Assembly (NCBI GenBank): GCA_040767965.1
Contig: JAXGNR010000008.1
Coordinates: 32,001 to 96,000 of the forward strand
DNA from: Atribacterota bacterium
Lineage (GTDB): Bacteria > Atribacterota > Phoenicimicrobiia > Phoenicimicrobiales > Stramentimicrobiaceae
Length of the DNA stretch: 64,000 nt
Direction of reading: 5' to 3'
Within the stretch, counting starts at the first letter, position 1. Each line of letters begins with the position of its first letter. The position numbers and the translations under genes are program-made. The notes beneath the pieces were generated by a model. The model saw nothing but the letters and a program-made list of their open reading frames with translations. It did no database searches and was not told where the DNA came from. Shown here piece by piece: positions 1,993-5,775 of this stretch.

Positions 1993-2021
1993 TTGACATA
2001 AAAAGTGGAAAAACTTATAAT
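1993..2021 (+). promoter_or_regulatory. Sigma70-type promoter of the T-box leader
   Basis: TTGACA(1993-1998)-17 nt-TATAAT(2016-2021), perfect consensus. Confidence 0.8.
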
Positions 2022-2035
2022 TAAAAATGAAAGAA

Positions 2036-2291
2036 TGCTTTTAAGGAAAACTAAATCTTTTTATCTTATACAGAGAACCGCAGTTGGTGTAAAGGCGGTT
2101 AAGAAAAATGATTAAATTCCACCTTAAATGTAGTTCCAGTCTACAAAATATTTTTGTTATTTGTTTAACTTTATAAAACATAATAAAGATTATTATTCAG
2201 AAAGAGCAGTTCACTCTGTTGAATTAGGGTGGTACCACGTGATTAAACTCTCGTCCCTAGGATTTTACAGTCTATAGACGGGGGTTTTTTG
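2036..2291 (+). ncRNA. T-box riboswitch, Ser specifier (UCC), transcription-attenuation type
   Basis: Stem I closed by TTAAGG/CCTTAA with AGAGA and GGTG distal motifs; specifier TCC at 2118-2120 followed by A; T-box AGGGTGGTACCACG 2226-2239; terminator CTCTCGTC...GACGGGGG + U-tract to 2290; serS lies downstream. Confidence 0.9.
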
Positions 2292-2314
2292 TTTTTTTCA
2301 GAGGGATATTTGTC

Positions 2315-2743
2315 ATGGAAAAATATATAGTTATTGAACATACTGCAGATATAGGGTTAAAAGTATTAGGTAATACTAAAAAGGAATTATTCATAAATGC
2401 TGCCAGAGGAATGTTTTTTCTTATTACCGGATTGTCTCTGGATAAGAAACCTTTTAAAAAACAATATTTACCAGTTGAATGCAATGCAGCAGGACTAGAG
2501 GATTTACTGGTTGCCTGGTTAAATGAACTGCTTTTTATCCATAACACCGATTTTCTTTTTTTAAATGAATTTAAGATAGAAAGCCTGACAGGTAATTTTC
2601 TTAAATCTCAAGTAGGAGGATTTAGATTAAAGGAGTTTCCTTGTAAAATAAACAATGAAATCAAAGCAGTAACTTATCATAATTTAAATATTTCTAAAAA
2701 TAAAAAGAAACAATGGGAAACTTCAGTAATATTTGATATTTAA
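2315..2743 (+). CDS. Archease (RtcB activator)
   Basis: N-terminal EHTAD, WLNELLF, IKAVTYH, C-terminal FDI; adjacent to rtcB. Confidence 0.92.
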   Translation: MEKYIVIEHTADIGLKVLGNTKKELFINAARGMFFLITGLSLDKKPFKKQYLPVECNAAGLEDLLVAWLNELLFIHNTDFLFLNEFKIESLTGNFLKSQVGGFRLKEFPCKINNEIKAVTYHNLNISKNKKKQWETSVIFDI

Positions 2744-2808
2744 AATATTCTCAATATTTAATTTATAGTTCATTATTACAAGTGGTATTTTGGAAAGGGT
2801 TTATTAGA

Positions 2809-4266
2809 ATGGGAACAAACTGGGAAGAAATATTAATACAAAAAAATGAAGTTATATGGGATATACCAAAAGAAATTTTTTCAGGGATGATGGTAGATGG
2901 ACGTATCTATGCTTCTATAGGATTGATAAACCAGATAGTCCAAGATCAATCATTACAACAGGTAGTTAATGTTGCTTTTTTACCAGGTATAGTCGGTTAT
3001 TCCTTGGCAATGCCAGATATTCATTGGGGATATGGTTTCCCTATTGGCGGAGTTGCTGCTACCCGAGTTGAAGATGGGGTTATTTCACCTGGAGGTGTTG
3101 GTTTTGATATTAATTGCGGGGTAAGATTAATCAGGTCCAATTTATTTATTAATGATCTTAAAAGTAAATTAGAAACCCTATTGGAATTGCTCTATAAAAA
3201 AATTCCTTCTGGTGTAGGAGCAGAAGGCAATCTTAAATTAACCCCTTCTGAATTAAAACAGGTTTTGGCAGAAGGAGCACAGTGGGTTATTAAAAAAGGA
3301 TATGGGGAAAAAGACGATTTTTTGTTTAGTGAAGAAAAAGGGAAAATGATTCATGCCAATCCAGAGATAATTAGCAAAAAAGCTTTACAAAGAAGTGCTA
3401 CTCAACTGGGAACATTGGGTTCAGGAAATCATTTTTTAGAAATACAGATTGTTGATAAAATTTATCAACCGAAAATAGCACAATCTTTTGGTCTGGAAAA
3501 AGATATGGTTGTTATTGCCATTCATACAGGATCCAGAGGATTTGGTCACCAGGTCTGTACTGATTATTTATCAAAAATGCAGAAGGCTGTACAAAAATAT
3601 CATCTTAGTTTACCAGATAAACAGCTAGCTTGTGCACCGATAAATTCACCGGAAGGTCTGGAATATTATCAGGCAATGTGTTGTGCAGCTAATTTTGCCT
3701 GGGCTAATCGCCAATATATAACTTATTGGATTAGAGAAATTTTTGAAAATGTTTTTCGTATGACAGCTGACCAAATAGGACTGAATCTGGTTTATGATGT
3801 TGCCCATAACATTGCTAAAAAGGAAATGCATCGATTTGCTGGAAAAGAAATGCAATTATGTGTACATAGAAAAGGAGCAACCAGGGCTTTTCCGCCAGAT
3901 CATCCTGATTTGCCTGCAAAATATCAGCAAGCTGGACAGCCTGTACTTGTTCCAGGGGATATGGGAAGATATTCATACTGTTTAGCCGGCAAAAAAGAGG
4001 CGATGGAAAATACTTTTGGGTCAGCTTGTCATGGAGCAGGCAGGATATTAAGCAGGGGAGCTGCCAAAAAAGAAACTGAAGGCAGAAATATCAGTGCAGA
4101 ATTAAAAGAAAAAAATATTTTAGTTAAAGCAAGAAATAGAAATACTCTGCGAGAAGAGTTTCCCGCTGCCTATAAAGATGTTTCAGAGGTAGTAAAAGTA
4201 ATAGAAGTTAGCAATATATGTGAAAAAGTAGCCAGAATGCGCCCCTTAGGAGTTATCAAGGGTTAA
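2809..4266 (+). CDS. rtcB: RtcB RNA 2',3'-cyclic/3'-phosphate-5'-OH ligase (long, archease-associated type)
   Basis: MPDIHWGYGFPIGG, GFDINCG, GSGNHFLE, HTGSRG, HNIAK, HRKGATRA, SACHGAGR; ATG 2809 preferred to GTG 2782. Confidence 0.95.
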   Translation: MGTNWEEILIQKNEVIWDIPKEIFSGMMVDGRIYASIGLINQIVQDQSLQQVVNVAFLPGIVGYSLAMPDIHWGYGFPIGGVAATRVEDGVISPGGVGFDINCGVRLIRSNLFINDLKSKLETLLELLYKKIPSGVGAEGNLKLTPSELKQVLAEGAQWVIKKGYGEKDDFLFSEEKGKMIHANPEIISKKALQRSATQLGTLGSGNHFLEIQIVDKIYQPKIAQSFGLEKDMVVIAIHTGSRGFGHQVCTDYLSKMQKAVQKYHLSLPDKQLACAPINSPEGLEYYQAMCCAANFAWANRQYITYWIREIFENVFRMTADQIGLNLVYDVAHNIAKKEMHRFAGKEMQLCVHRKGATRAFPPDHPDLPAKYQQAGQPVLVPGDMGRYSYCLAGKKEAMENTFGSACHGAGRILSRGAAKKETEGRNISAELKEKNILVKARNRNTLREEFPAAYKDVSEVVKVIEVSNICEKVARMRPLGVIKG

Positions 4267-4326
4267 AGCAATTAAACAAACAAAATTATAACAAACAGCT
4301 GTTGTTTAGAGAGGAAGGTCAGCTAT

Positions 4327-5601
4327 ATGTTAGATTTAAAATTTATTCGTTCAGAGCCTGAATTAGTAAAAGAATCTTTAAAAAAAAGAGGTGAAAAACA
4401 CCACTATATTGAAGATATTTTAGAGCTGGACGAGAAAAGAAGAAAAATACTGTATGATGTAAATAATTTAAAGCAAGAACGTAATTATGTATCTGAAGAG
4501 ATTGGGCAGTTAAAAAAAGAAAAGAAAAATGCTCAGGCACAAATTTTAGCCATGAGAGAAGTTTCCAAAAAAATAAAAGAAATGGATTTTGAGTTAAAAG
4601 GGTTAGAAGACAAAATACAAGAAACATTGATGATAATTCCCAATATGGTAGACGACAGTATTCCTATAGGCTTGGATGATAAGAGCAATATTGAAATCAG
4701 AAAATGGGGAATACCCAGAGAGTTTGATTTTCAGCCACAAGCCCATTGGGATTTAGGTGAAAAGTTAGGAATGCTTGACTTTGAAAGAGGAGCTAAAGTC
4801 TCTGCTGCTCGTTTTACTGTTTTAAAAAATTATGGAGCAAGATTAGAGCGGGCATTAATAAATTTTATGCTTGATATTCATACTAAAGAACACCACTACC
4901 AGGAAATATTTCCACCTTTTTTAGTTAATTTTAACACTATGCGAGGAACAGGACAGTTGCCGAAATTTGAAAATGATTTATTTAAAGTTAGTGATGATTT
5001 GTATTTAATTCCTACTGCAGAAGTTCCATTAACAAATCTTCACCAAGACGAAATTCTGCCCGAAGAAGAGTTGCCAATTTATTATACTGCATATACTGCT
5101 TGTTTTCGTAAGGAAGCAGGTTCTTACGGAAAAGACGTTAGGGGACTAATCAGGCAGCATCAATTCAATAAAGTAGAAATGGTTAAATTATGTAAGCCGG
5201 AAGAGTCTTTCCGAGAACTAGAAAAACTTACTCAAGAAGCTGAAACAGTATTACAGAGATTGGAGCTTCCATACCGTGTTGTTGTTTTGTCTTCAGGAGA
5301 TATTGGTTTTTCAGCAGCAAAAACATATGATTTAGAGGTTTGGCTTCCAGGACAGGAGAAATACAGAGAAATATCTTCCTGCAGCAACTGCATTGATTTC
5401 CAAGCACGTAGAGCTAATATACGCTATCGGTCTGCAGATTCAGGGAAGGTGAACTTTGTACATACTTTAAACGGATCAGGTGTTGCGATTGGGAGGACAA
5501 TGGTAGCAATTTTAGAGAATTTTCAGGAAAAAGATGGTTCAATTTTTATTCCACAAGCCTTACGATCTTACATAGATGGATTGAAAAAAATTCCCAGTTA
5601 G
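4327..5601 (+). CDS. serS: Serine--tRNA ligase
   Basis: [54 protein letters not shown]. Confidence 0.98.
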
Positions 5602-5689
5602 GGTAAAATTTGGTTGCTAATATAATACATGTCTGTTAATATTATTTATTGTTAAACTAACAACCAGATCAACAGATTTTATTTTTTGC

Positions 5690-5775
5690 GGAGGGATGTC
5701 CGAATGGCAAGGGGCCGGTCTTGAAAACCGGTGTAGGCGTAAGCTGTCTGGGTTCGAATCCCAGTCCCTCCGCCA
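5690..5775 (+). tRNA. tRNA-Ser(TGA)
   Basis: Acceptor GGAGGGA/TCCCTCC + GCCA, anticodon arm CCGGT-CTTGAAA-ACCGG, long variable arm, T-loop TTCGAAT. Confidence 0.95.

Follow-up and report, generated by a model that had tools for sequence, protein, structure and literature searches.

A serine T-box leader upstream of the archease–rtcB–serS genes in an Atribacterota bacterium and its relatives

Described T-box regulons comprise genes for aminoacyl-tRNA synthetases (aaRSs), amino-acid biosynthesis and transport. The locus analysed here raises the question of whether such a leader also controls an RNA ligase, and what the ligase would do in that regulon. It lies in a stretch of 64,000 nt (contig C8:32001–96000 of a 2.33-Mb, 98% complete assembly of an Atribacterota bacterium; hereafter, the window), in which a consensus promoter and a T-box leader with a serine specifier are followed by the genes for archease, the RNA ligase RtcB, seryl-tRNA synthetase (SerRS, encoded by serS) and tRNA-Ser(UGA). 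We consider it probable (approximately 0.78) that a transcription-attenuating Ser T-box controls one archease–rtcB–serS polycistron built on an inherited gene order, such that the ligase would be co-induced in the presence of uncharged tRNA-Ser. The case is strong on regulatory coupling, since archease lies behind the terminator, the sole serS gene lacks a recognizable promoter, the layout is phylum-wide and the switch is maintained; on function, it is weak.

Leader, switch and genes in the window

The elements of the locus are as follows.

1993–2021, + strand: sigma-70-type promoter, TTGACA–17 nt–TATAAT, 12/12 consensus (sequence match)
2035–2261, + strand: T-box leader (RF00230; 77 bits, E 5e-17, full model 1–219)
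2036–2132, + strand: Stem I, with specifier loop, AGAGA bulge and GGUGUAA distal loop (Rfam alignment and fold)
2118–2120, + strand: specifier codon UCC (Ser), followed by the purine A2121, at the 3′ end of the specifier loop
2222–2239, + strand: T-box sequence AAUUAGGGUGGUACCACG, with the UGGU bulge at 2230–2233 (Rfam alignment)
2226–2258, + strand: antiterminator helix, alternative to the terminator (alignment pairing)
2245–2299, + strand: intrinsic terminator, 11-bp stem 2245–2255/2277–2287, then a U-run to 2299 (fold)
2315–2743, + strand: archease, 142 residues (PF01951, E 1e-33), ATG start, with the ribosome-binding site AGAGGGA just after the U-run
2809–4266, + strand: rtcB, RNA ligase, 485 residues from the ATG at 2809 (PF01139, E 2e-174)
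4327–5601, + strand: serS, seryl-tRNA synthetase, 424 residues (PF02403 and PF00587), the only serS found in the genome
5690–5775, + strand: tRNA-Ser(UGA), the first tRNA after serS

The exact promoter sequence occurred once in the 64-kb window, compared with 0.01 occurrences expected by chance, and a TTGACA…TATAAT-like pair was present at the equivalent position in most of the orthologous leaders. The T-box leader was detected in a search of 551 nt, in which its E-value was obtained; its 77 bits fall below the curated Rfam cut-off (gathering score) of 93, which is why the default Rfam scan missed it. Orthologous leaders at the equivalent position scored 78.7–121 bits, many of them above the cut-off. 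Stem I contains the specifier codon with its purine, the AG bulge and the distal-loop motifs. The 3′ side of the specifier loop reads AAAUUCCA, and is closed by UCC (2118–2120) and the following purine. The genome carries tRNA-Ser genes with four anticodons (GCU, CGA, GGA and UGA), all with G73 and an encoded CCA, and the tRNA-Ser(GGA) gene matches the UCC specifier. The predicted contact between the UGGU bulge and the GCCA end of tRNA-Ser includes a U–G wobble. The antiterminator, which carries this UGGN bulge, competes with the terminator, whose hairpin (2245–2287; −24.6 kcal/mol for the whole fold) shares the 3′ half of the antiterminator and is followed by the U-run UUUUUUGUUUUUUU.

Based on these elements, transcription would begin at the consensus promoter (1993–2021) and, with tRNA-Ser(GGA) charged, the hairpin at 2245–2287 would end the transcript before archease. 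With tRNA-Ser(GGA) uncharged, its anticodon would pair with UCC and its GCCA end with the UGGU bulge, and stabilization of the antiterminator would allow the transcription of archease, rtcB and serS together, with the polycistron possibly extending into tRNA-Ser(UGA). RNA-ligase capacity would thereby rise with a shortage of serine or seryl-tRNA, and this rise may be adaptive or a by-product of gene order.

The three proteins are each encoded by one gene copy in the genome. Archease matched the full-length domain PF01951 (116.5 bits, model positions 1–136), and its residues 3–142 aligned end to end with Pyrococcus horikoshii archease (4n2p). Likewise, RtcB matched full-length PF01139 (581 bits, model positions 1–426) and aligned over its whole length with its P. 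horikoshii counterpart (E 4e-169), with identical DINC, GNHFLE, HTGSRG, DVAHN and CHGAGR motifs. By alignment count, D100, C103, H208, H239, H333 and H408 were identical in the two ligases; we take these to be the metal-binding and GMP-accepting residues, including the catalytic Cys and His. For rtcB, the open reading frame (ORF) listing also gives an in-frame upstream GTG at 2782.

The first-pass annotation of this DNA had described a perfect promoter, a full Ser-specific T-box directly before archease, the order archease–rtcB–serS with short gaps and no obvious internal terminator, and tRNA-Ser(TGA) after serS. Our analysis recovered the promoter as the sole exact match in the window, the serine specificity and position of the leader (UCC specifier; 15 nt from U-run to ATG), the gene order (65-nt archease–rtcB and 60-nt rtcB–serS spacers, with no terminator-like site listed in either) and the tRNA gene at 5690–5775. 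All elements of the description were thereby confirmed; the T-box has its specifier, antiterminator and terminator, with a score under the gathering cut-off (RF00230, 77 bits) and no kink-turn (K-turn).

Conservation of the arrangement within Atribacterota

We compared 40 relatives from two families of the window's order (f1 and f2), giving 41 genomes including that of the window. RtcB was found in 31 of the 41 genomes and SerRS in 29, whereas both were missing from nine; since serS is an essential gene, the locus is presumably unassembled in these nine. In 28 of the 29 serS-bearing genomes, rtcB was located immediately 5′ of serS on the same contig, and in the remaining genome serS begins 18 nt from the contig end. 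A T-box was found directly before archease in 25 of the 28 genomes in which the 5′ region of archease was assembled (12/15 in f1 and 13/13 in f2), one of these leaders being cut by a contig end and three being judged by motif and alignment only. The Rfam scores of the leaders of the order were 78.7–114.5 bits. Together with a serC–serA form in two further families, described below, this result excludes an insertion in one genome, which the first-pass annotation had named as a finding that would speak against its reading. Between rtcB and serS, no second T-box or other Rfam RNA was detected at E ≤ 0.01 in 13 loci, 11 of them from the order.

In terms of sequence, the switch itself was also conserved. 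UCC followed by a purine was present in all 33 leaders with a visible specifier region. Among the 33 aligned 3′ domains, the bulge was UGGC, which forms a Watson–Crick pair with G73, in 28, and UGGU in five, including the window. For the terminator, 99.4% of cells were paired over 33 leaders, and four of the 11 pairs had changed on both sides; none of 500 shuffles reached as high a value, and slid controls were 42–63% paired. For the antiterminator, 92.6% of cells were paired over 33 leaders, with an exchange of A–U for G–C at one pair in 11 sequences. Judged from these alignments, the Ser T-box switch is under selection and visibly maintained across the phylum.

In the phylum as a whole, RtcB was found in 61 of the 72 genomes that were at least 80% complete, and all 20 loci from families f3, f4, f6 and f7 showed rtcB–serS adjacency. 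Where enough upstream sequence was available, the T-box (87.9–121 bits) headed serC/serA followed by archease–rtcB–serS in four of four f3 loci and eight of eight f4 loci, the genes between T-box and archease being serC-like (Aminotran_5) and/or serA-like (2-Hacid_dh). The three f6 loci have the order serA-like–archease–rtcB–serS, and no T-box was found at E ≤ 0.1 within 4 kb; five of the 20 loci end too early for the T-box to be judged. The spacers in the Profundicultor record (L084, identical with L142), the only f4 locus measured, were 23 nt (archease–rtcB) and 13 nt (rtcB–serS), and a repeat-rich gap of 720 nt separates serA from archease in one complete genome. In one f6 genome (L148, 5090–5220, minus strand), a group II intron D1–D4 match was also noted on the upstream side of the operon.

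In the window's genome, the serA-like protein of the operons in the other families gave no tblastn match at 1e-5, and the class-V aminotransferase (serC-like) gave weak matches alone. From this gene content, the window's order looks like a derived state in which serC–serA has gone and the T-box abuts archease. With no match to a serA-like gene, the organism may make its serine from glycine or take it up.

Spacers in the order were 13–389 nt (archease–rtcB) and 13–557 nt (rtcB–serS), and were filled by GC-rich hairpin repeats and, in three genomes, a 23S_rRNA_IVP gene. This gene (PF05635, 119 residues; locus L033, 3050–3409; also L037 and L130), inserted between rtcB and serS, widens the rtcB–serS spacer to 526–557 nt in the three f2 genomes. 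The repeats, which are short and occur in f2 spacers (for example, L033, L127 and L129) and elsewhere, have units starting, for example, with GTAGGACAGGCG and GTAGGGGTTCGAT, and look like a family of the repetitive extragenic palindrome/miniature inverted-repeat transposable element type. An intein interrupts rtcB in several relatives, namely some of the f2 genomes and one of f7, in which the gene forms a single frame of approximately 975–1019 residues. The intein (PF14890; residues 111–613 in L127, G032:C64, 2190–5180, minus strand; also in L128–L131, G035 and G070) is placed at the position of the catalytic cysteine, which is residue 103 in the window's protein.

The tRNA-Ser(UGA) gene was located 3′ of serS in six relatives of the order and was absent within 560–990 nt in three others, most of the remaining loci ending too early to judge. 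In the window's genome, this tRNA is 86 nt in length with a GGAGGGA acceptor stem, whereas the three other tRNA-Ser are 94–96 nt with GGAGAG(G/A); the 86-nt form is also found 3′ of serS in relatives of genus g4.

Integrity of the switch and co-transcription

Several observations weigh against the control of one polycistron by a working T-box. First, the window leader is the most divergent of the leader set: it has the lowest score among the orthologues (77 bits, against a gathering cut-off of 93), the K-turn (GA) is missing at the base of Stem I, with gaps at the K-turn positions in the Rfam alignment, and the specifier loop is ACUA/AAA, compared with AGUA/GAA in 19 of the 19 other leaders of the order. 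Secondly, three members of the window's family no longer carry an intact T-box, through loss or degradation, yet retain the operon; the control is therefore dispensable. In G012 (L031; 100 nt before archease), what remains is the promoter plus the 3′ half of the terminator, and the whole T-box is gone; in G021 (L018), the promoter and a hairpin remain, and the T-box sequence is gone; in G014 (L025), Stem I is replaced, beside a masked stretch, and the T-box score is 31 bits. Thirdly, weak promoter-like sites (9/12) exist 5′ of rtcB, yet such sites are no more frequent than by chance (13 found versus 18.4 expected), and spacers of 60–65 nt, and of up to 557 nt in relatives, are compatible with internal promoters inside the coding sequence. 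Finally, no gene junction was spanned by any contig from four RNA-library runs, which yielded short contigs only.

The first two of these observations could indicate that the window T-box is decaying and no longer switches, with the operon constitutively read through or terminated. The low score, the missing K-turn, the alteration in the window alone of two nearly invariant bases of the specifier loop, the U–G wobble in place of C–G at the discriminator contact, the loss of the T-box from G012 and G021 and the replacement of Stem I in G014 are all in line with decay. However, the specifier, the distal-loop motifs, the T-box sequence, the antiterminator and a strong terminator with its U-run are intact, and a terminator without a working antiterminator would silence the only serS gene. 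Decay of the switch is, in our estimation, very unlikely. The three relatives can serve as natural constitutive controls.

Low scores are typical of the T-boxes of this genome, because only one of 15 RF00230 matches, representing 13 leaders, exceeds the gathering score. The first genes behind the 11 other annotated leaders encode aaRSs (two class-I aaRS genes and hisS), biosynthetic enzymes (carA-like, trpE-like, two acetolactate-synthase-like, an amino-acid kinase and a homoserine dehydrogenase) and two transport proteins. T-boxes are thus used conventionally in this genome, for aaRS, amino-acid biosynthesis and transport genes. Two partial matches covering the 3′ domain only (C14:28069–28170 and C9:94609–94687) lie just downstream of full leaders, and may represent tandem T-boxes or duplicated antiterminator domains.

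With respect to co-transcription, only 15 nt, containing the ribosome-binding site, separate the U-run from the archease ATG, which leaves archease without a promoter of its own. The listing gave no terminator-like site in the archease–rtcB or rtcB–serS spacer of the window and, from 2770 to 5580 on the + strand, no promoter-like site; a site with 10/12 consensus was found at 5581–5609, 5′ of tRNA-Ser(UGA). The four RNA-library runs, the libraries of which may contain DNA, had matching shares of 0.05–0.07 of sampled words. They gave one exact contig of 270 nt at 2521–2790, covering the 3′ end of archease and 47 nt of the spacer, and a second contig of 200 nt within rtcB; these contigs speak neither for nor against co-transcription. 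A partial decoupling could be proposed, in which the T-box attenuates archease, and perhaps rtcB, and serS is transcribed mainly from an unrecognized promoter in or after rtcB. The wide rtcB–serS spacer with the 23S_rRNA_IVP gene in three relatives (526–557 nt) and the 720-nt repeat-rich serA–archease gap in one complete genome would accommodate such an arrangement. The 60-nt spacer of the window, in a region with no listed promoter-like match, does not favour it, nor do the spacers of 13–41 nt in other genomes, which are too short for a promoter. Moreover, with serS outside the control, the Ser T-box would be left without any Ser-related gene in the order. We regard partial decoupling as unlikely, and prefer the single polycistron under the Ser T-box; its co-transcription, its tRNA-dependent read-through and any benefit from it are what we infer from the elements, their conservation and their covariation.

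Outside the operon, a divergent gene of the Beta_elim_lyase family (347 residues, 801–1844, minus strand), presumably threonine-aldolase-like from its size, lies upstream, and amt (ammonium transporter) and glnB (P-II) lie downstream of the tRNA gene (5998–7716). A terminator-like 20-bp hairpin (7900–7946) falls within the listed start of a 1560-residue ORF (7881–12563), and the true start of this ORF is therefore probably located further downstream.

Inherited gene order, the role of the ligase and known systems

Among the best 80 RtcB loci listed from species-representative genomes, serS was located 3′ of rtcB in at least 16, namely, three Atribacterota, 11 Omnitrophota and two metagenome-assembled genomes (MAGs) labelled Planctomycetales, which cluster with Omnitrophota in the RtcB tree. 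No T-box was found at the gathering score in the 13 non-Atribacterota loci listed, and tRNA-Ser(UGA) was the first tRNA after serS in all 11 of the listed non-Atribacterota loci with downstream sequence. The RtcB tree (FastTree, 116 rows) contained three well-supported clades: the window's order (99), other Atribacterota (100) and an Omnitrophota type (96). An uncultured Atribacterota MAG was placed inside f2, and Ca. Atribacter hydrocarboniphilus and Ca. Profundicultor thermophilus in the clade of other Atribacterota; these named records assign the group to Atribacterota. The deep branches lacked resolution, and the tree does not distinguish a single origin of the serS-linked block from its transfer. 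In one Omnitrophota locus, a c-di-GMP-I-GGC riboswitch match was noted upstream of archease–rtcB–serS (L124, 1875–1954).

Since the same block occurs in Omnitrophota without a T-box, the gene order archease–rtcB–serS–tRNA-Ser(UGA) is probably older than the switch. The old order would then have come under a Ser T-box in Atribacterota, with serC–serA included in some families. The T-box-less order in Omnitrophota and f6, together with the loss of the T-box in three relatives, fits a Ser T-box laid on an inherited operon.

The first-pass annotation had gone further and proposed a unit that senses, repairs and recharges tRNA. To respond, a T-box has to engage an intact tRNA at two sites, the anticodon and the free NCCA end, and it therefore reports charging and not breakage. 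Given this property, the ordinary tRNA-Ser genes and the existence of the same gene order without a T-box, the proposed logic is not supported. A stronger form of the idea is a dedicated maintenance of tRNA-Ser, in which RtcB and archease specifically re-join or heal tRNA-Ser or tRNA-Sec, and have been kept with serS, tRNA-Ser and the Ser T-box for this reason. SerRS also charges tRNA-Sec, and a tRNA-Sec gene is present in the genome. The archease–rtcB–serS block was invariant in all of the Atribacterota loci examined (28/29 in the order and 20/20 in the others), while its flanking genes vary between families; in f4 archease and rtcB are flanked by serA and serS, with spacers of 23 and 13 nt measured in one locus; and the block recurs with tRNA-Ser(UGA) in 11 of 11 listed Omnitrophota-type loci with downstream sequence. 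However, the established T-box mechanism excludes binding of a tRNA that has been cleaved in its anticodon loop or has no CCA end. All four tRNA-Ser genes are intact and ordinary, with no intron or split gene that would need a ligase, and neither a nuclease nor a toxin partner was observed in the operon. Substrate choice cannot be deduced from gene order alone, and the RtcB tree does not settle whether serS-linked ligases form one clade. We consider dedicated tRNA-Ser maintenance to be improbable.

Because the order archease–rtcB–serS–tRNA-Ser exists without a T-box in Omnitrophota and f6, inherited gene order appears to explain the arrangement at least as well as dedicated tRNA-Ser repair. 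The persistence of the block amid changing flanks and its tight position between serA and serS could still reflect a real link with serine tRNA, although we hold this to be doubtful. Equally tentative is a wider proposal that RtcB–archease forms a working part of seryl-tRNA homeostasis, retained next to serS and tRNA-Ser(UGA) since before Atribacterota and Omnitrophota gained the block, and placed in Atribacterota under a riboswitch that senses tRNA-Ser. If true, this would be the first case of RNA repair or ligation under riboswitch control: a shortage of charged tRNA-Ser would summon a ligase, and cleaved tRNA (or rRNA) would thereby be restored during starvation. If the coupling reflects inherited gene order only, the locus would be a clean example of passenger genes in a riboswitch regulon. 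Natural variants are available for comparison: T-box–archease, T-box–serC–serA–archease–rtcB–serS, T-box deleted, and T-box-less (f6 and Omnitrophota).

The closest known relatives of the leader are the Bacillota serS T-boxes (RF00230; the Ser family in TBDB, PMC7778990), which belong to the same RNA family with the same read-out. Both combine a Ser specifier whose last base is C with a UGGN bulge facing the tRNA 3′ end and with competition between terminator and antiterminator upstream of serS. The window differs in that its first genes are archease and rtcB, not serS, and its leader lacks the K-turn and a recognizable Stem II/IIA–B, and scores below the gathering cut-off. In the main text of TBDB (PMC7778990), neither 'ligase' nor 'Atribacter' is mentioned. 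The literature search, with most subscription journals outside its range, found no paper linking a T-box with RtcB or archease and, in full text, none on Atribacter and T-boxes; papers naming both T-box and RtcB treat the two topics separately in the parts available. This agrees with the first-pass statement that no description of a T-box-controlled RNA ligase was known to it.

Operons of archease and rtcB ('tRNA splicing operon') are known from diverse bacteria and archaea, and the activation of RtcB by archease has been shown biochemically for the P. horikoshii proteins (Desai et al. 2014, PMC3973293). As in these operons, the window archease is directly 5′ of rtcB, and both proteins align with the P. 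horikoshii pair; the part of that paper available to us names neither riboswitch control nor serS linkage. In contrast to a tRNA splicing operon, no intron-bearing tRNA was present among the genes found by ARAGORN in the window's genome. The Omnitrophota archease–rtcB–serS block shares its gene order with the window, down to tRNA-Ser(UGA) as the first tRNA 3′ of serS, and differs in the T-box, found at the gathering score in none of the 13 non-Atribacterota loci listed.

The window's genome, which is 98% complete, gave no match to RtcR (PF06956) or RtcA (PF01137), both of which were matched in the Escherichia coli control; with neither the activator nor the cyclase found, the operon does not fit the RtcR/sigma-54-regulated rtcBA type. 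RtcR, an activator protein, senses damaged RNA ends and is activated by tRNA fragments. Enterobacterial rtcBA is reportedly, in work ascribed to Genschik in 1998, under the control of RtcR and sigma-54. The two systems are alike in that expression of the RtcB ligase is, or would be, tied to a tRNA-derived signal. The enterobacterial system uses a protein activator and responds to damaged ends, whereas that of the window would use a cis-acting RNA and respond to the charging of intact tRNA. An RNA ligase and its activator, as T-box cargo conserved across a phylum, would widen the known list of T-box regulons, and would provide a second case, beside RtcR and mechanistically different from it, of RtcB expression keyed to tRNA status.

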